Below the pieces are notes generated by a model. The model was not told the origin of the DNA and made no database searches. It was given only the letters and a program-made list of their open reading frames with translations. This document shows positions 13,001-33,282 of a stretch of DNA of 43,013 nt, piece by piece. Positions within the stretch are counted from its first letter, which is position 1. Every line of letters starts with the position of its first letter. A program made the translations under genes and the position numbers. The stretch is from a virus. The stretch lies in IMG/VR virus record IMGVR_UViG_3300046733_000343. One strand, written 5' to 3'.

Positions 13001-16000
13001 GATACTAGCATCCGCATTCGACAATCCAGATACGCTGGCAACCATGCTGGAAAGCAGCGACGAAAACATTAAAGCTATTAGTAATGCCTTCATGGCCGCT
13101 GCGCCTAAATTCGCACAGCTGAAAAAGCAAATTGCCGATGGTCGGACTGATGCGCAATTCGATATAACATCTGATCTGGCGGAAATGGCTAACTTAGTCA
13201 GCCGTTTGCGCCGTGAAGGGACTAAGCTGCAAGACTATTACAATCAGTCAGATATGCTTTCGCAACCGGACCCAGAGGTTCAGAGACTTGTTCGCGCTTT
13301 TTACAACGAAGGTCTTACCCGCGCAAATTCGACCAAGGCAATGAAGGATTTTCTGGATTTCTACACAACAGAAGCGTTACAGAAGGAAAGCGGCGGTCTG
13401 CTGCCAGATGAAACAACGGCATCAGATATAATTGAAGCTGGACGTCAACGTACTGAGGAGAAGCGCAGTGAAGCAAAAGGACAAAACCAGCCAGGACTTG
13501 AGCTTGCGGCATCAGGCAATGTCAAACGCGATGATGCGCGTGGCGAACAAGTACAAAAACGAAGAGATGCGGAAAGTGGCGAAAGAGCTGAAGCAGTTAA
13601 GCCAAGAGCCGAAAGCAAAGTAGATGACGCCCGATCCGAAAGTGAAGTGGAGCAAAGTCTCGAAGGTGTTGCAGAACTACGGGACACCGAAAGCACAAGC
13701 CCAGCCAATGCCGACACTCGAGAAGAAAACACAAGAGGCACAAAAGCTGGCCGCGTCACGATTGCGCAGTCCCAAACACTAAGGCAATCGCTTTACCGGG
13801 ATGCGTTTGATGATGCTGGATTTGACGTCAATACCGCAGTCAACCTACCAATTACCAATCAGTACAGAATATTGTCAAAACTGGTCAAAGAAAAGTTTGG
13901 CCTTAGTTTTGTTGAGAAGCCACAGCAAGGCGCTGGTTACGACCAAGTGAATGCTTTGCTCGATGCTTACCACAACTTACAGTGGATGACGCATACAATG
14001 GCAATGCCGAACAAAGCTATCGGCCTGGACGGTACGCTGGGCTTGGCGCTCCCGCAAAACGCTTGGGGCGGATACTTGGCCGCTTATGTGAATAAAGAAG
14101 CAACTACACCAGACTCATACCAGTCTGACGTGAACCCCGTAACTGGTCCAGTCATCTTAATGCCCGGTCGCTCGAACAGCTTCGCTCACGAATGGGGCCA
14201 TGCGCTAGACTACCATATCTTAGACCGGATCGGGAAAAACTGGGACCGAGGTGTCACTGGTCGTATCCGTACCAACCTTAAAAGTGGCGAAATGGTTTAC
14301 GCTGACAACGCGCCTCAGAATGTTGTCGAGGCAATGGGCGATCTTATGAACGCCATGTTTATGGACAACGCCGAGGTATCTGCCGAGATAATGAAGTTGG
14401 AAAGCGAAGTCGCAAGACTGCAAGCCAAGCAAGACAAGCGTACTAGCGGCAAACCTATTAAGAAGCTGGCCGACACGAAAGAACAGCTGCGGAAGTTACG
14501 CGAAGGTAGCACTAAGAAACCAATAGCTAAGTCGCAATACCGAAAGGATGCGGAGACATTTGCCACCGCAAACAAAAGTGACGTCAACTACTGGACCCGC
14601 CCAACAGAAATGTTTGCTCGAGCATTCGAGGCTTACATCGCCCGAAACGTGGAAGCGGCTGGCGGCAACACAGAGTTTATTTCATTTGAGAACGAAGCAT
14701 ACGAAATGGCTATGGATAAAGTTAAGGGTGGCGATGACCGCTTGGCGCTAACCTATCCTAACGACACTGACCGGATGCGGATATTCATGGCAATGGATCG
14801 GTTGATGGAGGAGTTGCGCGCTGACGTTATTCAAGAGGGTAAAGCCGCAGATGCACCCGGCGATACCGACATGATCGATGCGCAGGCAGAGTTTTACAAA
14901 GAAGTCGATCTGACAAAGAAAGAGCGCATCGGGATTATTGCCGATCAAAAGAGAGCCTGGAACGAACACAAGGTTATGCGGCAGAAGATTAGAAGCCGCC
15001 CACAGCGTTACAAGTCTGACTTAGCGCGCTTTCAAGATACAGCTGGTGTTGTCTTAATCAATACGAAGCGCGGCATCCTGTTTAACATGGCGAGTAGATA
15101 CAAAGATAATGCTCGCGCAAAAGCATTGATCGAGAGTGTCATCGCGCGGGTTGCTACCGATCCCGGCTCAACTGATAACCGCGTTACGGTATCGGGTGGA
15201 ACTTTTGAAGAGGCTGTGCGAGGCGCGTCTAGGCGTTACGCTGGTATATGGGCGGGATTGCTGGAGAAGCACAAGCTAGACAGCTTTGGCGCTTTAGATA
15301 ACAAGGAGCTCCGACTGTTCCTAACAAGTGATGAAACAACACAAGCAAATGCGCCAGACAGAATTAAGCGCGCAGCTGGTGACATCCGCAACAAGTTGCT
15401 GAACCCTATGTATGATTACATGCGTAAGAATGGTTTGGATGTAAATTACTTGCCAGAAGGCGGGTTCATGCCTCGCATGATGGACGCTCTTCTTGTTGCT
15501 GACAGTAAGGAAAACTTTGTAAACGGTAAGCCAGGAGAGAAAAAGCGCGGGGCAAAAGCGCTTTATTCTGACGTCATTTACGAAAATGAACTAGGCGTAA
15601 TCGACGTAGACGACGCAGAGCAAGCGTCGGCTTTGGTTAAAATGGCGAGAAGCCTTGAAGGCTCATTAGATGGAAGCACCGCAGATGCGGCTGCGGAACT
15701 AAAGTTTAAGCTGAAGCAAATAGAACGCGAAAGCGCAAAGCTGGATGATCCAGAGGTGGACCCAGGTGATGTTGAAGCCAGCATAATGCAGCTTCAAGAG
15801 GAAGTGGTGGACTTGCACCAACAGCTTTATGAAGATTTGCGTGATCCTTACAGTACAGAAGCTGCAAATGACTGGTATGATCGAATTGTGCGCCGTCAAG
15901 TTGGCGACATATCGCGTCACGGAGTGCAGGGTAGCTTCGCTAAATCTCGTAAGCTACCGCCAGAAGCCGACACATACATGGTGGATTTCTACCTCGATCC

Positions 16001-17651
16001 AACAGAAGCAATAACAAATTACATCTCAGGCGTTACGCGCAAGGTTGAGTATGAAAAACGCTTTGGCACAAAGACCGTTCCAAAAGGTAAGCGCCAACGG
16101 ACCAGTGGAAACTCTATCGATCCGGCAAGCAATGTTCACGACTTTATGAGCTACGTTTCTGAGGAAATGGCCGCAGCCGGCATGAAGGAACACGAAGTAC
16201 GCCAAATACAAAAAATTGTGGAAGTGGTTACTGGAACTGGAGCGCCAGCTGATTTTGCACTAGAAACCGTTTTAAATGCGCTTAATACGTTTGGCACTAT
16301 GGCTTTGCTTCCGAGGGCTGTCATATCCAGCGTTGCTGAACCGATGACGGCAGCTATTACAACTGGAAGCGTGACTGACGGGTTCCGTTCTTTTGCTTAC
16401 GCTCTGGACGAGTTTGCTACTTTTGTCAGAGGCCGGACAGCCAGAGAGCGCAAGCAATACTACAAACAGCTGGGCAGCGTATTGGGTGTGATCGATCTTC
16501 CAGAGAGCGGAGAAGTCATTGCAAACCGTGTCGGAGGTACAGCAGAGGACGATTCGAAAAACGCGCAGCGCCTTGGTCGATTCTTTTTTAGAACGGGTTT
16601 GGTCTCTATAACTAACGCGCAACGTCGTGGCAGCTTGCGGGTTGGAATACGCTACCTTGGTCAGCTTGGAGAGCAATACGCAAAGCCTGCCAGCCCAAGA
16701 ATGAAAGATCGAGCGCGTGAAGTTCTGCAAGACTTCGGAGTGCGTCCAGACGACATGGATCAGTTCGCAGATTTCATGATGAACCTGGAGAAGAATGAGA
16801 AAGGCATGTACGAAATTGACAGCATCATAGATCGATCTGGTGAGCTGTCAGACATGGGCGAGATACTGGCTCTTGCTACACGCCGGTTTACAGACCAAAC
16901 AATTCAAGACCCTAAGATCATTGACAGACCAATGTTTGCAGACAGCCCCGTGGGTAGAATTGTATTCGGCATCCAGTCGTTTGTTGCTGCATTCCAGCGC
17001 AATGTGCTGATTGCATCAGCAAAGCGTGTTCAGCGTGAATACGAAAATAGAGGCATAACGTCGGCAGCGCCTTACGCGGCCCTAAATGTTGCACTACCTC
17101 TTGGCGCGTTGTACTTGTCGCACACTCTTGTTTCTGCTGTACGCGAAATGCTGTTAAACCCCGACAAGTGGGAGGAAGAGAAAGAAGCCGACAACCTTGA
17201 AATGTACTTGCTTACTCTTGGCCTTTCTCGTTCTGGCTTCACTGGACGCATGGACCCGTTAATAAACGCAGCTACATCTTTAAAATACCAGTCAGACTTG
17301 TCGAACATGCTGGTAGGGGCTTCAGCTTCCTATTATGCCAGAGCCTTGCAAAGAATGATTTACCCGGCGTTGGGCACAAACAGTCCAAACACGGTATCTG
17401 CCGAGTACCAATTTGCCCGTGGTACTTATGATATGATTGTTCCGTTTGCTTTGAGTATCCTTGCCACGCACTCTGGGCTTGGCGGGGTTGCGCAAGCCGC
17501 AGCCGGCGCAACGGCAGCTGCTGGTTCGTCGCCGGGTGTTAAGCACTGGGTGCTGCGCAACGTAATATATCAACTTTATGATGAAGAGTATCGACCTGGG
17601 CGATCTGGGCGGAAAAAGAAGTCAGAGGAAAAGAAAGGCTTCAATCGTTGA
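10020..17651 (+). CDS. Giant multidomain internal-virion/ejection protein (polyvalent-protein-like; T7 gp16 position)
   Basis: Uninterrupted 7.6-kb ORF. ATG at 10020 (AGGGG 6 nt upstream) overlaps the upstream stop. Contains a ParB-like block (QPRDR at 12438-12452, SGNGR at 12579-12593) and a zincin block (HEWGH at 14187-14201, EMFARAFEAY at 14607-14636). Confidence 0.75.
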   Translation: MADGFGNPFLEEEDKSTDPFENPFLKKKKDGFSNPFVSDLPAETAIPPVAAISEPSPKTDMPPVDPTGGFRSPTSGVTETNALLAQQIADQNRAAQIANAPNTTELDSVFYPKTFDPAVTGQQALETERQRLADVMEQPGPTIAKAEANVNPSISQVQGLPGNYTTTRQPVSGMPISDAAAVDEMAFGNTYQMPNNAVSRGTGRMLGVFNLFAQQLGLKDTGDYIDRMQELNRIIPEAPKDVQDGLRAITDENNTWGEAFRAMKDNPGAVLSVVGESIPQMIPSLLAATGTTLATGGNIFAGAAAVGATSGAIEFGNVLDEEIRSSGVDLNDDAAVQELFDNPEFWGRARERGARRGIAIGLFDALSMGMAGKLVNMAKVRGSGRLGVGGAATAELAGVQGPLGSVGEFSAQLLEQQGGFRDGLNLGEIALEGVAEIVPGAGEVAVSTTAGGDPVALAAKQTMLDIDNAEFATTPEQEAIALLQPQDMLLEEQIVDMQMRLRSLGLDKLASVYGSWLDRLDTITPKNLTFLRTKVEEEERKAAGVASLNPRVENVMQDYLAKDDLELAQFNAAMSDPRTKDVMEDLGRKMQMIGDRLHELGYDYKTVASDPNAPAAIKKAREFLSNGGIAMRLMKQLNANVKGYKGNRQVTDEDLNKTIGRLQTALTVDVKPLIESAVPNPSVQSTIETPTAPVADGPIQPPSANSQPVNAANPPDLPPQSAAPSSPNVKTDAPTAPAVQETAPPQPAAPVAEEAPTVNPQEAEPVGREVPSKPVTSVQTPDGQANFNVQGRVIELADLKQATGDLQPRDRSRKESAALAKERAGSMFNPARLLDDPTSGSGAPIIARDGTIMSGNGRVLTMQEVYASQSDSLASYRAALEDAGINTEGFSQPVFVRQLADDMTVQELKRFADLSNTEAQAQMSMTERASRDSTRLTDSKIIDLYRGDFDIDAAQNRGFVSEYAKKILSPTEQGAFFNSKGEISQEGISRVKNAILASAFDNPDTLATMLESSDENIKAISNAFMAAAPKFAQLKKQIADGRTDAQFDITSDLAEMANLVSRLRREGTKLQDYYNQSDMLSQPDPEVQRLVRAFYNEGLTRANSTKAMKDFLDFYTTEALQKESGGLLPDETTASDIIEAGRQRTEEKRSEAKGQNQPGLELAASGNVKRDDARGEQVQKRRDAESGERAEAVKPRAESKVDDARSESEVEQSLEGVAELRDTESTSPANADTREENTRGTKAGRVTIAQSQTLRQSLYRDAFDDAGFDVNTAVNLPITNQYRILSKLVKEKFGLSFVEKPQQGAGYDQVNALLDAYHNLQWMTHTMAMPNKAIGLDGTLGLALPQNAWGGYLAAYVNKEATTPDSYQSDVNPVTGPVILMPGRSNSFAHEWGHALDYHILDRIGKNWDRGVTGRIRTNLKSGEMVYADNAPQNVVEAMGDLMNAMFMDNAEVSAEIMKLESEVARLQAKQDKRTSGKPIKKLADTKEQLRKLREGSTKKPIAKSQYRKDAETFATANKSDVNYWTRPTEMFARAFEAYIARNVEAAGGNTEFISFENEAYEMAMDKVKGGDDRLALTYPNDTDRMRIFMAMDRLMEELRADVIQEGKAADAPGDTDMIDAQAEFYKEVDLTKKERIGIIADQKRAWNEHKVMRQKIRSRPQRYKSDLARFQDTAGVVLINTKRGILFNMASRYKDNARAKALIESVIARVATDPGSTDNRVTVSGGTFEEAVRGASRRYAGIWAGLLEKHKLDSFGALDNKELRLFLTSDETTQANAPDRIKRAAGDIRNKLLNPMYDYMRKNGLDVNYLPEGGFMPRMMDALLVADSKENFVNGKPGEKKRGAKALYSDVIYENELGVIDVDDAEQASALVKMARSLEGSLDGSTADAAAELKFKLKQIERESAKLDDPEVDPGDVEASIMQLQEEVVDLHQQLYEDLRDPYSTEAANDWYDRIVRRQVGDISRHGVQGSFAKSRKLPPEADTYMVDFYLDPTEAITNYISGVTRKVEYEKRFGTKTVPKGKRQRTSGNSIDPASNVHDFMSYVSEEMAAAGMKEHEVRQIQKIVEVVTGTGAPADFALETVLNALNTFGTMALLPRAVISSVAEPMTAAITTGSVTDGFRSFAYALDEFATFVRGRTARERKQYYKQLGSVLGVIDLPESGEVIANRVGGTAEDDSKNAQRLGRFFFRTGLVSITNAQRRGSLRVGIRYLGQLGEQYAKPASPRMKDRAREVLQDFGVRPDDMDQFADFMMNLEKNEKGMYEIDSIIDRSGELSDMGEILALATRRFTDQTIQDPKIIDRPMFADSPVGRIVFGIQSFVAAFQRNVLIASAKRVQREYENRGITSAAPYAALNVALPLGALYLSHTLVSAVREMLLNPDKWEEEKEADNLEMYLLTLGLSRSGFTGRMDPLINAATSLKYQSDLSNMLVGASASYYARALQRMIYPALGTNSPNTVSAEYQFARGTYDMIVPFALSILATHSGLGGVAQAAAGATAAAGSSPGVKHWVLRNVIYQLYDEEYRPGRSGRKKKSEEKKGFNR

Positions 17652-18090: not shown

Positions 18091-19146
18091 TTACTCATGG
18101 ACGTCATCCAGATAGTCGGGAGCAAGATGCTCGTAATTTTTCCTGACTGTCTCAACCGTATCCCCCATGAATTTAGCTACTTTCTCGATTGGAACGCCAC
18201 GAGTAATAGCGCGCGTAGCCCATGTATGTCGAAACACATGCGGATGCAAATCATCTATGTTGAGGCTCTGACCCAAAGACCGCACCGCCTCGTAAAGTGA
18301 CGACGGCTTATCCAGCACATAATCGTTTATCGCCTCGCTCTTGGCGCGCTCCAGGACTGGTTTCAACATGGGGCTGATGGACAGGGCTGGCCGTCGTTTG
18401 ATCGATTGCAAGCGCCCCTGCGGATTAAACTGTATCTGGTTGCGCTCGATGCTGACTTGATCCCAGCGCAGCTGCTCGATGGCCGTCTTGCGCTGTGCTG
18501 TTTCCATTGCCAGCATAACGAACCGCCCAACCCTCGACATACGATTGGAAGGGCGTCGTCCAGGTCCGTTGATGACGTGGTTTGAGCAAGTATCCCGCAG
18601 TAACTGCACCTCGTCTTCAGTCAGCACTCGATCTCTAGGTGGCGACGGAGGCGGTAGATCGATATATGGGATGATCTCGCTAGAAATCCGCTGCTCTTTA
18701 GGCTCCACGCGCTCATTCATAAAGCGCAAGCAAGCGCGCAGCCGTTGCAGCTCACCGCGTATAGTGCCAGATGCTGCCTTGTTGGAGCCGATAATACCAT
18801 TAGCGCGCAGCTCAATAAACTTCTTAGCGTGTTCGCGTTCAATGGTGCTGACAGGCATGTTGCCAAAATACGCATTCAAGTTGTTTACGATAGCTGGGTA
18901 TCGGACCTCACTAAGCATACGCCCCTCGATCCACTGAGACATCCAAAGGTCTAAGCAAAACTCAACCGTTGGGTCTTTAACGACCTCAGTGTGCAGCTTG
19001 TAGTCCTTCAACCAACCCGAAAACCGCAGCGTTGCGACTTCCTGATCTGTCGTCCTAAGCGATACTCTTTTGCTGCGTCCGTCTTCTCGGAACGCGACAT
19101 ACCACTTTTCGTTTTTGTGTTGCTTGAGTTCTGGTGGCTTTGACAT
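18091..19146 (-). CDS. int: Tyrosine recombinase / phage integrase
   Basis: 351 aa. N-terminus KWYVAFREDGRSKRVSLRT, catalytic-region motifs AMETAQRKTAIEQLRW, LHPHVFRHTWAT and VRKNYEHL (R..HxxR..Y). AGAGG RBS. Confidence 0.9.
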   Translation of the reverse strand: MSKPPELKQHKNEKWYVAFREDGRSKRVSLRTTDQEVATLRFSGWLKDYKLHTEVVKDPTVEFCLDLWMSQWIEGRMLSEVRYPAIVNNLNAYFGNMPVSTIEREHAKKFIELRANGIIGSNKAASGTIRGELQRLRACLRFMNERVEPKEQRISSEIIPYIDLPPPSPPRDRVLTEDEVQLLRDTCSNHVINGPGRRPSNRMSRVGRFVMLAMETAQRKTAIEQLRWDQVSIERNQIQFNPQGRLQSIKRRPALSISPMLKPVLERAKSEAINDYVLDKPSSLYEAVRSLGQSLNIDDLHPHVFRHTWATRAITRGVPIEKVAKFMGDTVETVRKNYEHLAPDYLDDVHE

Positions 19147-19311: not shown

Positions 19312-19725
19312 TTACCCTTTTAATATATTCATGACCTCGAGAGCCTTGGCTGCGGGAACCTTCATGTTCACGCGCAACCAGAAATTTTCGGCATCGCTCT
19401 CGATAGATTTGATTTCAAGCGTTGGCTGCTCGGCAGCGTTTGCTTGCGCGTCATAGTTAGGAAACAGCACGTCAACCTCAACATCTAGTGCGTCGGCCAA
19501 TTTGGTAAGGTTCTTTGGCGAAGGCACTGAACGGCCTCGGACGTACTGGCTGATCGAATCTCGACCCATCCCAGACGCGCGCGATAGATCGCTTTGTGAC
19601 ATGCGCTTTTGCATCATAAAATTGTACAGTCTTTTGCCAAATTCCTGTCTAGTGAGAATTTTTTGGCTGTAATCTATACTGTTGTCTGGGCTATTACCGC
19701 CCCTGGTCATTATCGATTTTGTCAT
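19312..19725 (-). CDS. cI-like repressor (XRE-family HTH)
   Basis: ATG at 19725 with GGGGAG RBS. FGKRLYNFMMQKRMSQSDLSRASGMGRDSISQYVRGRSVPSPKNLTKLADAL is a classic HTH_3 pattern. It is divergent from the cro-like gene. Confidence 0.8.
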   Translation of the reverse strand: MTKSIMTRGGNSPDNSIDYSQKILTRQEFGKRLYNFMMQKRMSQSDLSRASGMGRDSISQYVRGRSVPSPKNLTKLADALDVEVDVLFPNYDAQANAAEQPTLEIKSIESDAENFWLRVNMKVPAAKALEVMNILKG

Positions 19726-19878
19726 CTTACTCCCCAAGCAATCGACATCTTTTGACAGACAATGTGCATATATCTGCCAAATTGGCAATGTAATTTTTTT
19801 TAATAATTTACATTGACCCGCCACATGGGCTGTGCTTTTAATCACCAAATACGAATTTCTAACTACAAATGGCGCGTC
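19726..19878. promoter_or_regulatory. Immunity-region divergent promoter/operator segment
   Basis: Inverted repeat CAATGTAA (19786-19793) / TTACATTG (19808-19815) around a pure A/T 14-nt spacer. 13-bp palindrome TGCCAAaTTGGCA (19775-19787). + strand promoter candidate TTGACC (19813-19818), 18 nt, TTTAAT (19837-19842). Confidence 0.55.
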
Positions 19879-20112
19879 ATGAAGACAAACATATCTATTA
19901 ATACCAGACTTCTTGTCCGTGACTTCGGTGGGCTTACCGCAGCAACACACGGGCTAAACGAAGTAGGGCATCAAATCACTAAAAATGCAGTCGACAAGTG
20001 GCGCAGGCGTGAAAGCCTGCCGTCGGAGTCGATGCTGGCGTTTGCCGTGCTGGCAAAACAAAAGAACCAGCGTTTCGACTTGCTGGATTACTTAATAAGA
20101 AAGGGAGAGTAA
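19879..20112 (+). CDS. Cro-like / YdaS-type HTH regulator
   Basis: 77 aa, divergent from the repressor. LVRDFGGLTAATHGLNEVGHQITKNAVDKWRRRESLP fits the Cro/YdaS pattern. Confidence 0.6.
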   Translation: MKTNISINTRLLVRDFGGLTAATHGLNEVGHQITKNAVDKWRRRESLPSESMLAFAVLAKQKNQRFDLLDYLIRKGE

Positions 20113-22776: not shown

Positions 22777-22794
22777 ACTAACTTGGGGTCAATC

Positions 22795-24957
22795 ATGGCA
22801 GATAAATTAAGATGGGCGAAGTTCTGGGCCGACAAAGGCTTCAGTGTTGTACCAGTCCACTATGTAAAAGAAGGCGGATCATGCAGCTGTTCGGCTGGCG
22901 CGGGTTGCGACAGTCCAGGTAAACACCCAGCACCCTCACGCTGGAAGCGGTATCAAGAAAAACGTGCCGACGACGACCAGCTAGAAATGTGGTTCGAGGG
23001 TCGATTCAAAGATTACAATATCGGTGTGGTCACTGGCTCCATCAGCGGCAACGTGTATGCCGTGGATGTTGACGTCAGCGAAGGAAAAGTAGGGCAAGAA
23101 ACGCTCGACGATCTGTCGATGGCAAATGACGACATCCCAGAAACCTTTGAGCAGCGCACCGGATCAGGTGGAAAGCATATCTTTCTGCGCGCACCCGAAG
23201 GAACGGCAATCATTACAGGAAAAAACGTCCTGGGCGATGGTATAGACACGCGCGGCGAAGGCGGGTTCGTCGTCGTCGCACCATCTAATCACAAATCAGG
23301 TGGTAAATACCGCATCGAAGACTGGGCGCTGAACAACGAAATCGCAGACAGTCCCGAATGGGTGACGCAAATCAGCAAGACAGACGCAGCGCGATACGAC
23401 GACACAACCATTCAAGACAAGAAAACGGATATGTTTGGCGACCTCACGGATGGCCGCGAAGGTTACATGGTCGAGCTGATCTTGGGAACCATCCGAACAT
23501 GGTGGGTAACAAAAGGTGTGCTGCCGACAGTCGAAGAGCTGGTCGACGACGCTTGGCCCACGTTTGAGCTAAAAGCGAAAGCCCGTGGCTCGTCACTAGC
23601 AGACGATGGCCGTGGCAAAGACCTGTTCCAACGAAAGGCGTGGTATCAGCTCAAACGCGCAAACAACAACGAACTCCGCATCCTGCAAAACGTCGAGCCA
23701 GGATCGGAAGCAAATACTGGGGTGCAGTCGTTCACTGCTGCCTCCGGTATGTCCGAAAGCCCTTCGTCAGTGACCCCAAGTACGGACGAGGGCTTTCGGA
23801 TTTCAGATTGGGGCATGAACCGATACGTCGGGGAACCGCCAGAAATGGAATGGCTGATCGATGGCGTCCTCCCAAGGCGCGTACCCGGCCTTATTTCTGC
23901 GATTGGCGGTTTGGGTAAGTCGTTCATGCTCTTAGACCTTGCCATGAAAGTCGCGGGTGGCGATCAAGGAATGCACCGCGAAGACGCCCTTGGAGGGGAC
24001 GTCGTTCATAATGGCAAGGTCGTTTTTTTCGGGGCAGAAGACAGCGCCAATAGTATGCACAGACGCATATCGAGTATCGGAGGCCCGAACCTCAGAGATC
24101 GAGCAGCCGGAAACCTGTTTGTCGTACCAATGCCAGACGCAGGGGGGCCAACGCCGCTCATTGTCAACGCAATGGGCCAATACAGCGTGACACCCGCATT
24201 CGTAGAAATACGCAGGCAGTTGCTCGATCTTGGAGACATCGCGCTAATCATCATCGATCCGCTCCAAGCCTTTGCAGCTGCCGACATCAACACCGATCCA
24301 GCAGCAGCGCAATACTGGTGGTCGCTCATGTCCCACCTATGCGTCGAAACAGGCGCAAACATCCTAATCGCGCACCACATGCGAAAGGATGGCGCGTTCA
24401 ACATAACAAAGGCCAGCCAAGCCAGAGAAGCAATCAGAGGCACAACGGCGCTCGTTGATGGCGCAAGGTGGGCATACAGCCTCTGGGCAATGAATGAAGC
24501 TGACGAACTGGTCCTGGCGCAAAAGTTAGACATTGAAGCGGGTGTCGGCCAATGCGCCCAGGGTGCAGTCGTCAAGACAAACGACCAATGCGACATGCAC
24601 ATCCGCAGCTTCATTAGAGGCGAGACTGGACTGCTGGTTGATCGAACAATGGAAATCAGTGGAATCCTAGACGCGTCAACCAAGCTCGACAGAGGCCAGA
24701 CGCAAGCCGTTTTCGACGAAATTTATCGTCGCTGGAACACGTCAGAGCCGTTTTCAATGGCCGTCAACACGCAGCGCAGCCTCCAGAGCTTCCTGCACTC
24801 CGACTATGGAATGCCAAAACGCGCAGCCAAGTCATACATCAAGGCGTGGAGCGACCAAGGCTTCATAGAAAGCGCAGTCCACGACAGCAAAACAAAGACA
24901 AAGGGCATTAAAGTAATAAAGACGCCCGACCAGCAACAATGGAGGGCATACTCATGA
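22795..24957 (+). CDS. Bifunctional primase-polymerase (AEP) fused to RepA/DnaB-like helicase
   Basis: N-terminal half: GFSVVPV, AVDVDV (DxD), SGGKHIFL, IDTRGEGGFVVVAPS. C-terminal half: Walker A GGLGKSFMLLDLA, Walker B LIIIDPLQAF, and HHMRK. Confidence 0.85.
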   Translation: MADKLRWAKFWADKGFSVVPVHYVKEGGSCSCSAGAGCDSPGKHPAPSRWKRYQEKRADDDQLEMWFEGRFKDYNIGVVTGSISGNVYAVDVDVSEGKVGQETLDDLSMANDDIPETFEQRTGSGGKHIFLRAPEGTAIITGKNVLGDGIDTRGEGGFVVVAPSNHKSGGKYRIEDWALNNEIADSPEWVTQISKTDAARYDDTTIQDKKTDMFGDLTDGREGYMVELILGTIRTWWVTKGVLPTVEELVDDAWPTFELKAKARGSSLADDGRGKDLFQRKAWYQLKRANNNELRILQNVEPGSEANTGVQSFTAASGMSESPSSVTPSTDEGFRISDWGMNRYVGEPPEMEWLIDGVLPRRVPGLISAIGGLGKSFMLLDLAMKVAGGDQGMHREDALGGDVVHNGKVVFFGAEDSANSMHRRISSIGGPNLRDRAAGNLFVVPMPDAGGPTPLIVNAMGQYSVTPAFVEIRRQLLDLGDIALIIIDPLQAFAAADINTDPAAAQYWWSLMSHLCVETGANILIAHHMRKDGAFNITKASQAREAIRGTTALVDGARWAYSLWAMNEADELVLAQKLDIEAGVGQCAQGAVVKTNDQCDMHIRSFIRGETGLLVDRTMEISGILDASTKLDRGQTQAVFDEIYRRWNTSEPFSMAVNTQRSLQSFLHSDYGMPKRAAKSYIKAWSDQGFIESAVHDSKTKTKGIKVIKTPDQQQWRAYS

Positions 24958-25103
24958 CCGACTTCGAAAAACTCATGGTCGAAGCAATCAAGCGCCAAGC
25001 CGAAATCATGGTGCTGGACCTCAAAAAAAAGCCACAACGCCTCACGCAAGTTCAACGCGCGGAAAACATCGCCGCAATCGCAGAGAAGCTGATCCGTGAC
25101 TAA
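24954..25103 (+). CDS. Small hypothetical protein (49 aa)
   Basis: ATGA overlap with the primase stop. Helical sequence MTDFEKLMVEAIKRQAEIM.... Below the ORF-track size cutoff and read by hand. Confidence 0.4.
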   Translation: MTDFEKLMVEAIKRQAEIMVLDLKKKPQRLTQVQRAENIAAIAEKLIRD

Positions 25104-25263
25104 GTGGATCGATTGCCCGACATGCGACGGCGAAGGCGAATACCTCGTTGAAGTGCCAATGCGCCAGAGCTTCACCCGTGACGTCGGTGAATACGAAACC
25201 GAATGGGAAACCTGTGAAGACTGCAACGGAGAAAAGCAGATCGAAGAAGAGGCAGACGAATGA
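25096..25263 (+). CDS. Small DnaJ-type zinc-finger protein (55 aa)
   Basis: Hand-translated as (V)TKWIDCPTCDGEGEYLVEV...WETCEDCNGEKQIEEEADE. It has two CxxCxGxG-like knuckles. Its stop overlaps the next ATG (ATGA). The GTG start is uncertain. Confidence 0.45.
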   Translation: MTKWIDCPTCDGEGEYLVEVPMRQSFTRDVGEYETEWETCEDCNGEKQIEEEADE

Positions 25264-25625
25264 ACGAGATTTGTAGAACGTGCGGCATAAAGAACGAAAA
25301 CCCAGAATACAAAAACTGCGAAACTTGCCGGAAATACTGGAGAGAGCAGCAGCGGAAAGTCGATGGAAACGCCGCGAAGGTGGACCGGATGCAGTCGAAA
25401 ATCGCAACGCAAAGAAACGAAATTGCAATGCTAACGCGCAAGCTCGAAGCCGCAACAAAAGAGAAATTGCAGCTCCTAAACGACATCAAATGGATGCGGG
25501 GAGAAACACCCGAAAATCGTCACTTCCGCCAAAAATCTCGCACTTCCGCTGGCGGAAGTAACGCAGGGGAACCCTCGAAATTGGCGGAAGTGAAGGGGGG
25601 GAACCCCGAAAAATGGCGGAAGTAA
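25260..25625 (+). CDS. Zinc-ribbon plus coiled-coil protein; candidate origin-binding/initiator protein
   Basis: CRTCG...CETCR four-Cys ribbon, then a heptad-like helix. The last ~35 codons are encoded by the iteron array. Confidence 0.55.
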   Translation: MNEICRTCGIKNENPEYKNCETCRKYWREQQRKVDGNAAKVDRMQSKIATQRNEIAMLTRKLEAATKEKLQLLNDIKWMRGETPENRHFRQKSRTSAGGSNAGEPSKLAEVKGGNPEKWRK

Positions 25626-25731
25626 GAAATGAGACAGCTTCAAAATATGGGAAAAGTGGCGGAAGTGGGCGGAAGTGGGGCGGAAGTAAACCCCCGTACC
25701 CCCTATACATTACTTCCGCTACGGCGGAATT
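25522..25731. repeat. Iteron array, likely phage origin of replication
   Basis: GGCGGAAGT is perfect at 25551, 25583, 25615, 25658, 25668 and 25679, with GGCGGAAtT at 25723. Reverse copies ACTTCCGCC at 25522 and ACTTCCGCt at 25542 and 25712. Spacings are 32, 32, 43, 10 and 11 nt. Confidence 0.7.
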
Positions 25732-25755
25732 GTAATGAAAGGAAGGAGGTACGAC

Positions 25756-26367
25756 GTGACGACGAAAACAAGATATAGCGAACCAAAGAAGAGCCGAAAA
25801 AAAGTTGTAGCGGATGACAGCTGGAAAGCACCAAAGATGTTTTCGGATAAACGATCTGACATTTGTTACGCAGCTGTTCGATCCGTTGACAAGGTTGCCC
25901 GTGACTTGGAAATGAAATGGGGGATCGGAAAGCTGGAAGAACTAGCACCGCCTAAACTTGCCGTCGCATTCGAGCAAGCCAGACAAAACTTCTCTGATGC
26001 TGCGCTAGGCGATGATCACAATTACCTCGTCCAAAAAGCCGACAACCTGATCCAAGGATGGAAAGCCGTCGAAGCATACGCGATCAAAAATGGAAACAAC
26101 CCCGGTGATGCCGACGTCTGGTACGCAATCGCGCCGCCGGATGCCGGTGGTCACAAATTCGCAATCGTAAAACATGAAGCCGACACCGCAGCCGTAGATC
26201 GAACAGAATACCCAAAAGTCTACAGCCTCGACGAAATAGCGCGGATCATTAAGGCATTCGAAACTGACATGATTGCCAAAACCAAAGAAATATTCCCCGA
26301 CGCCAAAATTACAAAGATCACACCAACCACAAAAAAGGTTATACTCGATGACGAAATTCCCTTCTGA
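25756..26367 (+). CDS. Hypothetical replication-module protein ending in an SSB-tip-like DDEIPF
   Basis: GTG at 25756 lies 6 nt after AGGAGG (25744-25749); the alternative ATG at 25735 has no RBS. The C-terminus is ...KKVILDDEIPF. Confidence 0.6.
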   Translation: MTTKTRYSEPKKSRKKVVADDSWKAPKMFSDKRSDICYAAVRSVDKVARDLEMKWGIGKLEELAPPKLAVAFEQARQNFSDAALGDDHNYLVQKADNLIQGWKAVEAYAIKNGNNPGDADVWYAIAPPDAGGHKFAIVKHEADTAAVDRTEYPKVYSLDEIARIIKAFETDMIAKTKEIFPDAKITKITPTTKKVILDDEIPF

Positions 26368-26764
26368 CGAAATGGACGCAACACCATCACCCCGACAACA
26401 GATGCTCCGTGAAGCCGAACAGCTGGTGGCAAACGGACGAAACAAGGAATATGGAGACCCCACCACCAACATGCAAAGAACCGCAGAAATGATGGCGGCA
26501 TATCTGGGACATCGAACAGGCAGAGAGCTAGAGGCGCACGACGTTGCTGCATTCGGCATCATCCTCAAACTCGGCAGACTGGCACACGATCCAACAAAAC
26601 TCGACAGCTGGACCGATGTGGCCGGATATGCCGCTATTGGTTACGAGGCAATAAAAAAGGCTGACACGAATGCCAGCCTCTTCGATGCCCTTGCTGATGC
26701 GGTCAACTCTACTCCTCTTCCAAAAACACCTCGTCGCCAATCTCCTCCGGCAGCTCAACCGTAA
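26348..26764 (+). CDS. DUF6378-like phage protein (family sometimes annotated dATP/dGTP pyrophosphohydrolase-associated)
   Basis: NGRNKEYGDPTTNMQRTAEMMAAYLG...HDVAAFGIILKLGRLAHDP...DSWTDVAGYAAIGYEA fits the remembered family pattern. Alternative start at 26372. Confidence 0.45.
   Translation: MTKFPSDEMDATPSPRQQMLREAEQLVANGRNKEYGDPTTNMQRTAEMMAAYLGHRTGRELEAHDVAAFGIILKLGRLAHDPTKLDSWTDVAGYAAIGYEAIKKADTNASLFDALADAVNSTPLPKTPRRQSPPAAQP
26653..26679 (-). terminator. Possible terminator of the - strand cassette, embedded in the convergent + gene
   Basis: The - strand reads AGGCTG-gcattcgtgt-CAGCCT followed by TTTTT. It starts 30 nt past the stop at 26709. The stem is short. Confidence 0.35.
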
Positions 26765-28753: not shown

Positions 28754-28826
28754 AGTGTTTCCTTTGTTTGCGCTTGTTGATGCCTACGGTCGGCACCTGT
28801 CGACAAACTGCCAAAATGGCCGTTAG

Positions 28827-28855
28827 TTGTCAACACAGTTGTGCAATAGTATTAT
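28827..28855 (+). promoter_or_regulatory. Sigma70-like promoter upstream of terS (its -35 overlaps a - strand TTGACA)
   Basis: TTGTCA (28827-28832), 17 nt, TATTAT (28850-28855). The complement of 28828-28833 reads TTGACA facing the - strand cassette. Confidence 0.5.
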
Positions 28856-28890
28856 TGAGGCGGGAAACAGACAGGAGCGCAGCCGTGGGA

Positions 28891-29337
28891 ATGATTAGGC
28901 AGAGACAGGCGACGGACCAACAAAAGTCCTTCGTGCAGTATTTGGTCAGAGAGAATAAGAAGCCCACTGAAGCCGCACGAATGGCAGGCTATCTGCACCC
29001 AAAGCAGTCAGCCTATGATTTAACCCGCAATCCTTCCGTGATGCTGCTTATTCGGCAGGCAAGACAAACCCTCTATCAAACCGACCTTGCCAACTTGGCA
29101 GCTGATACGCTGCGCGTGGTGATGGTGGACCCTGATGCACCGGCGTCGGCCAAGGTTTCAGCCGCCCGCACGGCGCTCGAGCTGGCCGGAGACCTCAACA
29201 AGAACGGTGACGGTGCAGCTGATGGCCGCAGCCTCGCCGAAATGACACCCGATCAGTTGGCAAGTATGATCGATCGTTGGGAAGCAGAGCGCGCCGATAT
29301 GGCAAAAGACGTGACAGCGGCGCAAAACGACGAATAA
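28891..29337 (+). CDS. terS: Terminase small subunit
   Basis: QQKSFVQYLVRENKKPTEAARMAGYLHPKQSAYDLTRNPSVMLLIRQA matches the Terminase_2-type HTH pattern (KQ..F...Y...N.T.AA..AGY...A..L..NP.V...I). Confidence 0.7.
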   Translation: MIRQRQATDQQKSFVQYLVRENKKPTEAARMAGYLHPKQSAYDLTRNPSVMLLIRQARQTLYQTDLANLAADTLRVVMVDPDAPASAKVSAARTALELAGDLNKNGDGAADGRSLAEMTPDQLASMIDRWEAERADMAKDVTAAQNDE

Positions 29338-29747: not shown

Positions 29748-29899
29748 TGCAGTCTAACCCACGTCGTCTTATGGATAAGCGCGTTGAGGATTTAGGTGTT
29801 GTTTCGCCTAGTCGCCGGCATACTGGCAAGCGTGTCACATTGAAGCGTTTAGGCAAGCTGTTGGGTTCGTCTGGACTGAAGAGCAAGCGGAGAGCTTAA
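29747..29899 (+). CDS. Small Arg/Lys-rich basic protein (50 aa)
   Basis: Hand-translated as MQSNPRRLMDKRVEDLGVVSPSRRHTGKRVTLKRLGKLLGSSGLKSKRRA. Coupled on both sides (TGATG and TAATG). Confidence 0.5.
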   Translation: MQSNPRRLMDKRVEDLGVVSPSRRHTGKRVTLKRLGKLLGSSGLKSKRRA

Positions 29900-32800
29900 T
29901 GGCACAACCACGAGATTACACACGGCAGTATAACTTCAACGATTATCAGGCTACGAGCCCCAGCGATCCTTTGCGCGGTTCTGAGGTTGACGGTGAGTTA
30001 AACGCGATCAAGCTGACGTTGGATGATTTGAATGCGAACATTGCGAAGATACAGCGCGACGATGGTAAGTTGGGCAACGTTTCTGTTCACAAGGATGCGT
30101 TTGACCAGGGTGCGTTAGCGATTATCAACAGTACGTTTACGCCACGCGGAAATTGGTCTGCGGCCGTTTCTTATGTTGTGAATGATGCTGTAAACTTCAA
30201 CGGTGCGACGTACGTTGCGACTGTTGCGCATACATCGAGCGCGGCTTTTGCGACTGACACGGCTGCATCACGTTGGTTGTTGATTGCGAATGCTGCTCTT
30301 GCTGGGACGAGTAGTTCTGTTGATAAATTTGAGGGCGACGGTTTAACGACTGCGTTTACGTTGTCGAACACTTATGCGAGTGAGACATCGTTTTTTGTTT
30401 TTGTTAATGGGGAGTTATTGAACCCTGTTGATGATTATACGTTATCCGGCACGACGTTAACGTTATATACGGCTCCTGGTTTGCCGACTGTTGCTGGCAA
30501 TGAGAATTTGATTGTTTGGGGTTCTAATGTTGTTGCGCAGGCGTCTCAGGATGCTGCGGAGGCTGCCGAATCGAATGCGAGTGGTTTTGCTGACGAGTCT
30601 GAGAGCTGGGCGTCGAAGACGAATGGCATTGTTGAGAGTACGGATTATTCGTCTAAGGCATGGGCGACGGGTGGTACTGGCGTTGATGCTGGTTCTGGTT
30701 CTGCGAAGGACTGGGCTACGAAGACTAGCGGTACGGTTGGCAACACGACTGAGTATTCATCGAAGTATTGGGCTACGCAGGGTGATGTACCCATTGTTGC
30801 GACGAACATTGCTGACGTTAATACTGTTGGCACGAATATCAGCAGTGTGAACACGGTTGCTGGTATTGACGCTAATGTTACGACTGTTGCGGTCATTTCG
30901 TCTGATGTTACCACGGTTAGCGGTATATCTGGTAATGTTAGCACTGTAGCTGGTATTTCGTCTGACGTGACCACGGCTGCGGGTGACAGCGTTGATATTC
31001 AGACGGTTGCTTCGAAGTCTGTAGAGATTGGTCGTCTCGGTACGGCTGATGCTGTTTCTGACATGAACACGTTGGGCACTGCTGCGATTGTTTCTGACCT
31101 TGATACTTTAGCTGACATATCGACTGACATTTCTACGGTTAGCGGAATTTCTGCTAATGTTACTACGGCTGCTGGTATTTCTGCTAATGTTACGACTGTT
31201 GCTGGTATTGCGTCTGACGTTACTACGGTTTCGGGTATAAACACTGCGGTTTCGACTGTCTCTGGCATAGCGTCTGATGTTAGTACGGTTTCTTCGAACA
31301 ACGCTAATGTTACGACTGTTGCTGGGAACAATGCCAATATTTCCACGGTTGCGGGTGTAAGTACGGACGTCACTACGGTCAGCGGGATTTCTGGCAATGT
31401 TACGACTGTTGCCGGTGTTTCTGGAGATGTTACGACTGTATCGGGGATAGCGTCTGATGTTAGTACGGTTTCGACGAATAATGCTAATGTTACGACGACT
31501 GCTGGCTCGATCACTAGCGTCAACACGGTTGCTTCGAGCATAGCGGATGTAAACACGGCGGCTTCTAACATTGGTGATGTGAGTACCGTTGCTGGCGAGA
31601 TTGGTGTAAGTGGTGTTGTTACGATAGTTGCGGCTGCGATTACTGACGTTTCCACGGTATCTGGTGATATAGCTTCGGTTATTACGGCTGCTAATGACTT
31701 GAATGAAGCGGTGTCTGAGATTGACACTGTATCCAATAGCATTGCGAATGTTGATACGGTTGGCATTAATATTAGCGATGTGAACACGGTTGCTGGTAAC
31801 AATGCGAATGTTTCCACGGTTGCGGGAAATACGACTAATATCAATACGGTTGCTGGAATTGACGCTAATGTTACGACTGTTGCGGGGATTTCTAGCGATG
31901 TAACTACGGTTTCTGGTATTTCGAGCGATGTCACAACTGTAGCGGCTGATGTGACTGACATTGGTACTGTGGCGGCGAGCATTGCCAGTGTGAATACGGT
32001 TTCTGGTTCAATCAGCGACGTCACCACTGTTGCTGCAAATATCAATAACGTAAATGACTTTTTTGATGTTTATCGCGTCGGAACTTCAGACCCGTCTACT
32101 GGCAATGATAACGGCGATTTATTTTACAACAGCTCTTCTGGTATTTTAAAGGTTTACAATTCCACGACGGCTGCGTGGGAGCAGGGCGTAACTGCTGGTT
32201 CTGGTTTTTTAGCCCTTACTGGTGGGCAACTTACTGGCAACCTTACCTTCTCTGGATCGGAAACTGTTGATGGCCGTGACTTGTCCGTTGATGGGGCGAA
32301 GCTGGATGGCATCGAGGATGGTGCTAAAGCCGATCAAACAGCGGCTGAAATACGGGCGCTTGTTGAAAGTGCTACTGATAGCAATGTATTTACAGACGCA
32401 GACCACACGAAACTTTCTGGCATCGAAGCTGGCGCTGATGTCACTGATACACCAAACGTGGTTGCAGCACTAACTGCGGGTTCAAACATTACCATTGCCG
32501 CTAACGGTACTATCTCTGGCGCTGCTCAGTACACCCACCCATCTCACCCTGGCGATGACATCAATATAGATACTGGTGCGTTGAGTGGTGCGACAGTTAT
32601 CTCTGACCTAGACTTTAACGTAACCACCGACACTTTAGGTCACGTTACGGATGCTAATGCTACTTTTTCTACCCGAAACATAACCCTAGCAAACTTGGGC
32701 TACACTGGCGCAACTAATGCCAACCATATAACCAATAACAACCAGCTAACCAACGGCGCTGGCTACACAACGTACTCGGCAAACCAGAGTTTAGATACGA

Positions 32801-33282
32801 GCAGCGCCCCTACATTTAATAATATCTATAACAACGATTGGTTCCGCAATAATGCAGCTAACGAAGGTCTATATAACCAAGCTACAGGCAACCATTGGGC
32901 TTCTAGCAACCAAAATATATGGTATGCAGCTAACGGTGGAACCTCATCACAAATAGAATTACGGACGAGTGGCAATTCCAGACGGGGTTCACTCTTCGCA
33001 AACAATTCTAATGAAGTTGGCATCTTAGATAGTGATAATAGTTGGGCAATAAAACACGTCCGTGACAGTCGCACAGAGTTTTTCATTAATAACAGCGAAA
33101 AGATGCAGCTTGATAGCTCAAACCTGACCGTACACCACGGTAGCGTTGTTCTCGGTGGCACAGGCCGCATTCAGGGTGTGGATACAGTTTCGTCTGGAAC
33201 TGACGCAGCAAACAAAAACTATGTGGATACTGCGATAGCTAGCTCTGGTGCCAGTATGGCTACAATGTACACTTATGTTTAA
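29899..33282 (+). CDS. Tail fibre protein
   Basis: The N-terminus YTRQYNFNDYQ...EVDGELNAIKLTLDDLNANIAKIQRDDGKLGN is typical of podovirus fibre N-domains. There is a CBM5/12-like segment (WSAAVSYVVNDAVNFNGATYVATVAHTS...RW), a long decapeptide-repeat shaft, and a C-terminal DAANKNYVD. Confidence 0.8.
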   Translation: MAQPRDYTRQYNFNDYQATSPSDPLRGSEVDGELNAIKLTLDDLNANIAKIQRDDGKLGNVSVHKDAFDQGALAIINSTFTPRGNWSAAVSYVVNDAVNFNGATYVATVAHTSSAAFATDTAASRWLLIANAALAGTSSSVDKFEGDGLTTAFTLSNTYASETSFFVFVNGELLNPVDDYTLSGTTLTLYTAPGLPTVAGNENLIVWGSNVVAQASQDAAEAAESNASGFADESESWASKTNGIVESTDYSSKAWATGGTGVDAGSGSAKDWATKTSGTVGNTTEYSSKYWATQGDVPIVATNIADVNTVGTNISSVNTVAGIDANVTTVAVISSDVTTVSGISGNVSTVAGISSDVTTAAGDSVDIQTVASKSVEIGRLGTADAVSDMNTLGTAAIVSDLDTLADISTDISTVSGISANVTTAAGISANVTTVAGIASDVTTVSGINTAVSTVSGIASDVSTVSSNNANVTTVAGNNANISTVAGVSTDVTTVSGISGNVTTVAGVSGDVTTVSGIASDVSTVSTNNANVTTTAGSITSVNTVASSIADVNTAASNIGDVSTVAGEIGVSGVVTIVAAAITDVSTVSGDIASVITAANDLNEAVSEIDTVSNSIANVDTVGINISDVNTVAGNNANVSTVAGNTTNINTVAGIDANVTTVAGISSDVTTVSGISSDVTTVAADVTDIGTVAASIASVNTVSGSISDVTTVAANINNVNDFFDVYRVGTSDPSTGNDNGDLFYNSSSGILKVYNSTTAAWEQGVTAGSGFLALTGGQLTGNLTFSGSETVDGRDLSVDGAKLDGIEDGAKADQTAAEIRALVESATDSNVFTDADHTKLSGIEAGADVTDTPNVVAALTAGSNITIAANGTISGAAQYTHPSHPGDDINIDTGALSGATVISDLDFNVTTDTLGHVTDANATFSTRNITLANLGYTGATNANHITNNNQLTNGAGYTTYSANQSLDTSSAPTFNNIYNNDWFRNNAANEGLYNQATGNHWASSNQNIWYAANGGTSSQIELRTSGNSRRGSLFANNSNEVGILDSDNSWAIKHVRDSRTEFFINNSEKMQLDSSNLTVHHGSVVLGGTGRIQGVDTVSSGTDAANKNYVDTAIASSGASMATMYTYV
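30796..32058 (+). repeat. About 40 in-frame tandem 30-bp (decapeptide) repeats in the fibre shaft
   Basis: Units such as ISANVTTAAG / ISANVTTVAG / IASDVTTVSG / INTAVSTVSG, consensus (V/I)(S/A)x(D/N)V(T/S)TV(A/S)G, with a few irregular units. Confidence 0.9.

Follow-up and report, generated by a model that had tools for sequence, protein, structure and literature searches.

The 43,013-nucleotide (nt) stretch of IMG/VR record IMGVR_UViG_3300046733_000343 (hereafter the window) is the genome of a temperate phage, in which an array of ten short repeats (iterons) at positions 25522–25731 is likely the origin of replication. The iterons are most likely recognized by the C-terminal domain of the primase–helicase encoded upstream, as judged from sequence comparisons and a predicted structure. 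A preliminary description of this DNA had instead proposed a zinc-ribbon protein, whose open reading frame (ORF) overlaps the array, as a cis-encoded initiator and had offered the next ORF as an alternative. The array co-occurs with, and lies downstream of, a gene encoding a helicase with this C-terminal domain, and it does so independently of the zinc-ribbon ORF, of the type of primase, and of the 203-residue protein encoded next. The constant partner of the array is a third protein, the primase–helicase, by way of its C-terminal domain. We regard as fairly probable the reading as a whole, in which the array is an origin bound by the winged-helix-like C-terminal domain of a primase–helicase that loads itself.

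Organization of the iteron array

A motif scan of the window identifies ten copies of GGCGGAAGT clustered at 25522–25731, seven of them exact and three with one mismatch. The exact copies on the forward strand start at 25551, 25583, 25615, 25658, 25668, and 25679, in agreement with the preliminary description. Three reverse copies had also been listed (25522, 25542, and 25712); all of them are present, but only that at 25522 is perfect. The copies at 25542 and 25712 each carry one mismatch, as does the forward copy at 25723. The rest of the window contains no exact copy and no second cluster. When one mismatch is allowed, the window contains 22 matches, compared to 8.9 ± 3.0 in shuffled sequences, and none of 100 shuffles reaches 22; ten of the 22 matches fall inside 210 nt.

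The reverse copies are positioned on the left side of the array and the forward copies on the right, separated by an A/T-enriched spacer. The start-to-start spacings of the iterons are 32, 32, 43, 10, 11, and 44 nt, among which are the steps of 32, 32, 10, and 11 nt that had been described. Both of the head-to-head pairs reported earlier, at 25542–25559 and 25712–25731, are found as abutting inverted iterons, and the longer repeat of approximately 32 nt around the iterons is also confirmed, at 75% identity. The A/T-rich gap exists; however, it is only modest, with a peak of 70% A+T (25620–25649) against 50.5% for the whole window.

Folded as single-stranded DNA, the segment 25510–25630 is more stable than its shuffled versions (z = −4.8 and −5.5), owing solely to the inverted iterons, while the segment 25650–25735 does not differ significantly from shuffles. 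A hairpin signal of the ssi type was therefore dropped from consideration. A search of the whole window against Rfam gave no match, and the array is thus not a known RNA.

Conservation of the array

A search of IMG/VR with the primase–helicase identified 22 close loci, in which the protein has 71–99% amino-acid identity to that of the window. The array is present in 19 of them, and the contigs of the remaining three stop short of the site. All 19 relatives that reach the site, with primase–helicases 74–99% identical, share the same layout: two or three reverse copies, forward copies approximately 32 nt apart, the A/T-rich spacer, a triplet of forward copies at 10- and 11-nt spacing, a C-rich block, and a final inverted pair. 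More distant relatives have three reverse copies at 10-nt spacing in the left cluster. The column conservation is 96.8% in the iteron core, 79% in the other columns of the array, and 58–66% in the flanking coding columns. A non-iteron block, AAACCCCCGTACCCCCTATACATT, at 25688–25711 has 91% column conservation across 20 relatives; it is possible that it serves as a priming site or as a site for a host factor. The core GCGGAAGTA and the block at 25688–25711 persist in two relatives (L023 and L026) in which the 203-residue protein is only approximately 50% identical. The array is a deeply conserved and constrained element.

The distribution of the motif beyond close relatives was surveyed by scanning IMG/VR for GCGGAAGT-N2–3-GCGGAAGT, which returned at least 118 stretches. 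Among the matches listed, at least approximately 80 are real arrays containing 4–14 copies of GCGGAA[AG]T within 300 nt. The remaining matches are two-copy chance stretches, which were used as a control. In many of the real arrays, again among the matches listed, the neighboring helicase is only 22–46% identical to that of the window. The spacings between adjacent copies in 78 unique arrays among these matches are concentrated at 10–11 nt (210 cases), 20–22 nt (32), 31–33 nt (105), and 43 nt (26). The spacings are multiples of one helical turn, and the iterons are helically phased, as had been suggested from the window.

A scan of bacterial genomes identified at least two real arrays among the 120 matches listed, in metagenome-assembled genomes (MAGs) of a Burkholderiales bacterium (Betaproteobacteria) and of Phaeospirillum (Alphaproteobacteria); the other matches are mostly single chance occurrences. 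Both MAG arrays are likewise located 3′ of a helicase gene. Homologues of the window proteins were found in MAG matches labelled “Pseudomonadales bacterium” (Gammaproteobacteria). The view of the preliminary description that the array is a likely origin composed of protein-binding iterons is strengthened by its conservation, its phasing, and its linkage to a replication module in at least approximately 90 loci. Our literature search found no description of the motif, of the module, or of this type of helicase with an origin.

The survey also returned one locus that departs from this pattern. Seven copies of GCGGAAGT at a strict 11-nt period lie at positions 1720–1793 of IMGVR_UViG_3300037493_004247, which has neither a helicase with the C-terminal domain nor a homologue of the 203-residue protein within 13 kb. 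These copies may form an unrelated tandem repeat; alternatively, the GCGGAAGT motif may be an orphan here or be used differently.

The C-terminal domain of the primase–helicase

The primase–helicase contains, in order, a Prim-Pol domain (residues 15–193), an AAA_25 domain similar to RSF1010 RepA (residues 338–538), and the C-terminal domain (residues 634–716). The AAA_25 domain is assigned by Pfam with an E-value of 2.7e-35, and the nearest relative in the PDB by sequence is RSF1010 RepA (1g8y_A, E = 7.2e-14, residues 348–574). The Pfam search of the protein found no D5 or superfamily 3 (SF3) match.

When the three parts of the protein were used separately in tblastn searches, only the last 125 or so residues were detectable in several array loci. 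The domain was subsequently traced by an iterated profile search seeded with residues 600–724, which identified exactly one matching protein per array locus, with the domain at the extreme C-terminus of a protein of 650–850 residues. The counts given here and below for array loci refer to the loci listed. The domain, approximately 85 residues long, was found in 86 of the 98 loci with at least five iteron copies, and in 11 of the 12 loci without it the contig ends on the helicase side. By contrast, none of the 29 control loci, with two or fewer chance copies, has the domain. The array is invariably located 3′ of the gene for the helicase with the C-terminal domain, and the distance of the array from the stop codon of that gene is −63 to +18 nt in 24 divergent lineages. 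The small ORFs that separate the two in the family of the window appear to have been inserted.

A phmmer search of the whole library yielded 65 representative clusters, and the match is C-terminal in every full-length one. A homologue search with the isolated C-terminal domain returned only seven fragments. In ten divergent members, Pfam identified AAA_25 in all ten; their N-terminus contains, depending on the lineage, Prim-Pol, a DnaG-type zinc ribbon with Toprim, or no assigned domain.

Searches of Pfam and of PDB sequences gave no match to the C-terminal domain. In the AlphaFold2 (AF2) model of residues 600–724, with a mean predicted local distance difference test score (pLDDT) of 79 and of 85–92 in the core, three helices are followed by a β hairpin in a predicted winged-helix topology. 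The top matches of the model in a Foldseek search of the PDB are all winged-helix DNA binders, namely MepR/MarR, SlyA, IscR, LexA, ScpB, and the KAT6A winged helix (best E = 0.12), which is suggestive of a winged-helix fold. The most conserved residues of the domain are those of the loop between helices H1 and H2 (PwS..QT..RY) and of the wing (K.KGLRV). They lie outside the putative recognition helix, and the mode of DNA binding would therefore be atypical for a winged helix.

A contrasting case is provided by Rhizobium phage RHph_Y3_1 (MN988490.1), which encodes a related AAA_25 primase/helicase with a C-terminus that fails the profile of the domain. Starting 3 nt past the stop codon of its helicase gene, within 190 nt at 4670–4858, there are 12 copies of TGGGAA[CT]G (TGGGAACG iterons) in both orientations, which are probably the origin of that phage. 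The contrast is a single case, but it fits a C-terminus that sets the specificity for the iteron. The repeat cluster is unannotated in the stretch of the record viewed. The related helicases of Wolbachia phage WO and of Manatee Spring phage have no clear array downstream.

In a spring-water phage (MW202444.1, 2965–5271), a shorter gene for a RepA-like helicase is followed by a separate 128-residue ORF annotated as “transcription initiation factor IIE”, a winged-helix family. In this layout there is a hint of a DNA-binding module encoded by a gene of its own.

Proposed mechanism of initiation

By analogy with the Rep and PriRep proteins of staphylococcal pathogenicity islands (SaPIs), the alpha protein of phage P4, and ORF904 of plasmid pRN1, we propose that the C-terminal domain of the primase–helicase binds the 8–9-nt iterons, which would be presented on one face of the helix in two inverted clusters flanking the modestly A/T-rich spacer. 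At the two clusters, the RepA-like helicase would thereby form hexamers on the DNA and then open the A/T-enriched spacer. The N-terminal Prim-Pol domain could then prime synthesis, and recruitment of the host polymerase would presumably be aided by the 203-residue protein, the C-terminus of which resembles that of single-stranded DNA-binding protein (SSB). Three parts of this scheme are inferred: contact with the iterons by the C-terminal domain as opposed to the rest of the helicase, firing of the element as an origin, and self-loading of the helicase.

Several observations weigh against this reading. The preliminary description placed the array directly downstream of the primase–helicase gene, whereas it actually starts 564 nt past the stop codon, with three small ORFs intervening. 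The Foldseek matches of the C-terminal domain are statistically non-significant, and the putative recognition helix of this domain shows little conservation despite an invariant iteron. Because the domain invariably forms part of the helicase protein, co-occurrence cannot separate its contribution from that of the helicase core. The co-variation of the C-terminus with the iteron sequence rests on RHph_Y3_1 as the one contrasting case. The motif scans started from the iteron itself as seed, and many of the loci are related to each other, so that their counts are not those of independent events. At 34 nt and up to 70% A+T, the spacer is weak for an unwinding element. A box scan of the window found no DnaA boxes near the array. 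Cumulative GC skew, proposed earlier as a check, has no inflection at the array and is uninformative here.

Comparison with known replication systems

The Rep and PriRep helicases of SaPIs, which are at times fused to a primase, read short iterons through a C-terminal winged-helix domain (PMC9371898). The SaPI origins contain 6–12 iterons directly 3′ of the rep ORF, with an A/T-rich center and opposed iterons on each side (PMC9371898). The window resembles them in its ten iterons of 8–9 nt, the inverted clusters, the central A/T-enriched spacer, and the position 3′ of a helicase gene. However, the helicase of the window has a RecA fold of the AAA_25/RSF1010-RepA type (superfamily 4, SF4), whereas SaPI Rep is an AAA+ protein similar to SF3 and MCM helicases. 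The C-terminal domain has no detectable sequence relationship to any PDB chain. Further differences are the length of the iterons, which is 5–6 nt in SaPIs, the host range in Proteobacteria, and the three small ORFs between the gene and the array.

The order of primase, helicase, and C-terminal winged helix, with the origin 3′ of the gene, is shared by SaPI Rep/PriRep, P4 alpha, and pRN1 ORF904 (PMC9371898, PMC2777425). The protein of the window likewise has a primase, a helicase, and a putative C-terminal DNA-binding domain in this order, and in its family both types of primase occur on a single scaffold of helicase and C-terminal domain. By contrast, the helicases of P4 alpha and pRN1 ORF904 belong to SF3 (D5/P4 type), whereas that of the window is of the AAA_25/RepA type. 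The winged helix of P4 (1ka8) is absent from the sequence matches of the C-terminal domain and from its top 50 fold matches. Phage P4 uses two separated sites, ori and crr, unlike the window with its single array and no second cluster.

The IncQ plasmid RSF1010 is similar to the window in its helicase core, which is homologous to RepA, in its iteron-based array, and in its dedicated primase. IncQ plasmids have a separate iteron-binding initiator, RepC, and approximately three and a half iterons of 20 nt. The window differs in its 8–9-nt iteron core and in a putative DNA-binding module that is apparently fused to the helicase; Pfam and PHROGs searches found no RepC-like family among the neighboring ORFs. 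To our knowledge, RepA-like helicases are otherwise thought to require a separate initiator.

The protein encoded downstream of the array

The 203-residue protein has a helical N-terminal domain, a small α/β domain, and a disordered tail ending in LDDEIPF. A word-indexed search identified 38 clusters of the family, all of them metagenomic, and the protein has no Pfam domain and no PHROGs or PDB sequence family. All 24 aligned members of the family end in an acidic stretch followed by I/L-P-F, and an acidic-x-[ILVM]PF terminus is present in 44 of 67 unique homologues, with tips such as LDDEIPF, NDPIPF, and GDDVPF. We take this acidic end to be a likeness of the C-terminal tip of Escherichia coli SSB, DDDIPF.

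Homologues of the protein, detected by an iterated profile, are encoded beside 70 of the 86 arrays with the helicase domain (approximately 80%). They are on the same strand in all 70 loci, and in the family of the window the gene starts 15–60 nt past the array. No homologue was detected by the same profile at the other 16 arrays, several of which are followed by kilobases of sequence. In three of these 16 loci (L082, L126, and L133), the slot is occupied by a canonical Pfam SSB that ends in DDVPF or DEVPF. The AF2 model of the 203-residue protein (pLDDT 75) consists of a helical part and a small α/β unit, for which a Foldseek search of the PDB gave only trivial helical matches.

This protein could be the iteron-binding initiator, or an essential accessory of the origin, which recruits the helicase as RepC recruits RepA at the IncQ oriV. 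Its gene position and constant strand, basic N-terminus, and conserved helical domain are in favor of such a function, and the SSB-like tip argues for a role in replication. However, a homologue is absent at 16 arrays and replaced by SSB at three of them, the protein drops to 23–40% identity while the iteron remains invariant, and its model has no DNA-binding fold and no PDB match. We consider this explanation unlikely; the earlier suggestion that the next ORF encodes the initiator holds insofar as the gene is a frequent companion of the array, but fails where the gene is missing. The 203-residue protein is more likely an SSB-like adaptor than an iteron binder, and it may be an SSB analogue without the oligonucleotide-binding (OB) fold or a replisome adaptor.

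Alternative functions and binding partners of the array

The array could function mainly as a transcriptional operator, with the origin positioned elsewhere; the phage protein bound to it, perhaps the C-terminal domain of the helicase, would regulate read-through or a promoter of the downstream gene. The array is situated within a co-directional operon, directly 5′ of a conserved gene. The degenerate forward copy in its last inverted pair (25723–25731) overlaps a conserved TAGTAAT/TTGTAAT stretch, a putative −10 element in an alignment judged by eye, and the abutting inverted pair at 25541–25560 scores as a terminator-like hairpin on the minus strand, the only such match in the array. However, a scan for sigma-70-type promoters found none in the array or its region, and ten phased sites over 210 nt with an A/T-rich center exceed what an operator usually needs. 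Furthermore, the array tracks the helicase gene, whereas the gene downstream varies and is separated by a gap of −64 to 649 nt. A mainly regulatory function is quite unlikely, but an additional regulatory role and the origin function are not mutually exclusive.

It is very unlikely that the GCGGAAGT sites are bound by a conserved host protein and by no phage protein. Such a protein would explain why the 8-mer is invariant across modules in which the phage proteins are only 22–45% identical, and why conservation is lacking in the putative recognition helix of the C-terminal domain. Nevertheless, the arrays occur in contigs assigned to Gamma-, Beta-, and Alphaproteobacteria, and a host factor would need the same specificity across these classes. 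The rest of the window shows no enrichment of the motif, the link between the array and the C-terminal domain of the helicase is nearly perfect, and a change of C-terminus in a related helicase goes with a change of iteron.

The proposal that the 121-residue zinc-ribbon and coiled-coil ORF encodes an initiator which binds iterons within its own gene, in the manner of the O protein of phage lambda, is largely refuted and now highly improbable. The ORF has two CxxC pairs, is conserved at the protein level in L001–L005, L017, and L019, and is apparently a real gene. It enters the array by 104 nt, or approximately 34 codons, which agrees with the previous estimate that the array encodes its last 35 or so residues. 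However, most relatives with the same array lack this ORF. The slot upstream of the array is occupied by ORFs of four forms: the 121-residue CxxC protein, a 104-residue coiled-coil protein without CxxC (L007–L009 and L015), an unrelated 110-residue protein (L016), and an unrelated protein of 97–99 residues (L018, L020, and L022). In the distant array loci, the 121-residue ORF is represented only by a weak, partial match in L136, at an unrelated position, and the ORF has no Pfam, PHROGs, or PDB sequence family.

Every ORF in this slot extends 57–121 nt into the array. The overlap is a by-product, because GGCGGAAGT has no stop codon in any of the six frames, and the upstream gene reads on. The window resembles the lambda origin in that the iterons overlap a coding sequence in the early rightward operon of a temperate phage and are adjacent to an A/T-rich segment. 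The analogy fails because the upstream ORFs, which are exchanged for unrelated ones, merely read into the stop-free array. Unlike in lambda, the ORF that the iterons overlap neither accompanies the array consistently nor encodes the initiator, and the phage has its own helicase–primase instead of an initiator–loader pair of the O/P type.

A partition (centromere-like) or packaging (pac) site is an extremely improbable function of the array: centromeres such as parC of plasmid R1 do contain approximately ten repeats with an 11-nt period, and a small-terminase-like gene lies 3 kb downstream (28768–29337), but no ParA, ParM, or ParB-type gene adjoins the array, the phage encodes an integrase together with a CI-like repressor and hence integrates, and across loci the array travels with the helicase and not with the terminase.

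Genome context

The early operon of the window is transcribed rightward and encodes a RuvC-like resolvase, a PD-(D/E)XK exonuclease, the 724-residue primase–helicase, and three small ORFs, which are followed by the array, the gene for the 203-residue protein, and a DUF6378 gene (Table 1). Other genes of the window encode a methyltransferase, the small-terminase-like protein, a large terminase, a portal, and a major head protein. A DNA search of INPHARED with the region 22783–26400 found no match, and thus no deposited phage is similar to this region at the DNA level. Equivalents of the ORF at 25096–25263, 55–72 residues long, persist in relatives without the 121-residue ORF, including more distant ones.

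Table 1 Features of the putative origin region and the lysogeny genes of the window
Feature	Positions	Strand	Description	Basis or status
Integrase	18091–19146	−		
CI-like helix-turn-helix (HTH) repressor	19312–19950	−		
Primase–helicase, 724 residues	22783–24957	+	Proposed initiator	Pfam; PHROGs primase and primase/helicase families
Conserved core of C-terminal domain, residues ~634–716	24682–24930	+	Predicted winged-helix-like; proposed iteron binder	Profile search, AF2 model
54-residue ORF	24939–25103	+	Between the helicase gene and the array	Kept in close relatives
55-residue ORF	25096–25263	+	Two CxxC pairs, weakly similar to DnaJ zinc finger	Pfam DnaJ_CXXCXGXG, E = 1e-4, fails curated cut-off
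121-residue ORF	25260–25625	+	CxxC..CxxC and coiled coil	Variable neighbor; no conserved partner of the array
Left iteron cluster	25522–25559		Reverse 25522–25530 and 25542–25550, abutting forward 25551–25559	
Two forward iterons	25583–25623	+	25583–25591 and 25615–25623; each 32 nt past the preceding forward copy	
Central spacer	25624–25657		34 nt; candidate unwinding element	Sole A+T-enriched part of the array; A/T-rich in relatives too
Three tandem forward iterons	25658–25687	+	Starts 25658, 25668, 25679; spacing 10 and 11 nt	
Conserved non-iteron block AAACCCCCGTACCCCCTATACATT	25688–25711		Flanked by the forward triplet and the final inverted pair	Unique in the window
Right-end inverted pair	25712–25731		Reverse 25712–25720 and degenerate forward 25723–25731	
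203-residue protein	25756–26367	+	GTG start after GGAGG	Frequent but dispensable companion of the array

The window contains one exact DnaA box, TTATCCACA, at 42129 on the minus strand. Matches to the box with one mismatch number 17 in the whole window, compared to 7.9 expected, and none of 100 shuffles reaches 17; these matches are scattered and all lie away from the array. A 2545-residue ORF at 10014–17651, in the structural region, contains a ddrB-like ParB domain (residues 787–901) and an LPD1 domain (residues 1520–1603) and is of the “large polyvalent protein” type known from phages and conjugative elements. A tail-fiber-like ORF of 1127 residues at 29899–33282 has an N-terminal CBM_5_12 domain; its internal tandem repeats of 30 and 60 nt (30847–31352) encode peptide repeats of the ...VTTVSGIS... 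type. A 117-nt tandem repeat (2.6 copies, 87% matches) is located at 9101–9405 within the ORF 8756–10027.

Implications for phage replication

The finding is no surprise in kind, since iteron origins beside replication genes are expected in temperate phages. The overall design is already known as well; as far as sequence comparisons indicate, what is new is its apparent base, an SF4 helicase of the RSF1010-RepA type, and a previously undescribed family of C-terminal domains. If the proposed reading is correct, the design of SaPI, P4, and pRN1 also evolved on a RecA-fold, RSF1010-RepA-like helicase, and a large uncharacterized group of marine and soil temperate phages would gain a concrete pair of origin and initiator.

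A more far-reaching proposal is put forward tentatively, as a possibility that we believe in less than in its alternatives. The C-terminal domain and the GCGGAAGT array would together constitute a portable origin cassette, which would have passed between temperate phages of Alpha-, Beta-, and Gammaproteobacteria while its 8-mer stayed essentially invariant. The cassette would represent a new class of self-loading SF4 (RepA-like) helicases that require no separate initiator or loader. The 203-residue protein would represent a new family of non-OB-fold proteins with an SSB-like tip, and its D-D-x-I-P-F end would plug host SSB-interacting proteins into the phage origin. The invariant 8-mer offers a simple sequence tag for finding origins in metagenomic phage contigs, and the SSB-tip protein beside the array is a lead on how such phages may recruit the replisome of the host.

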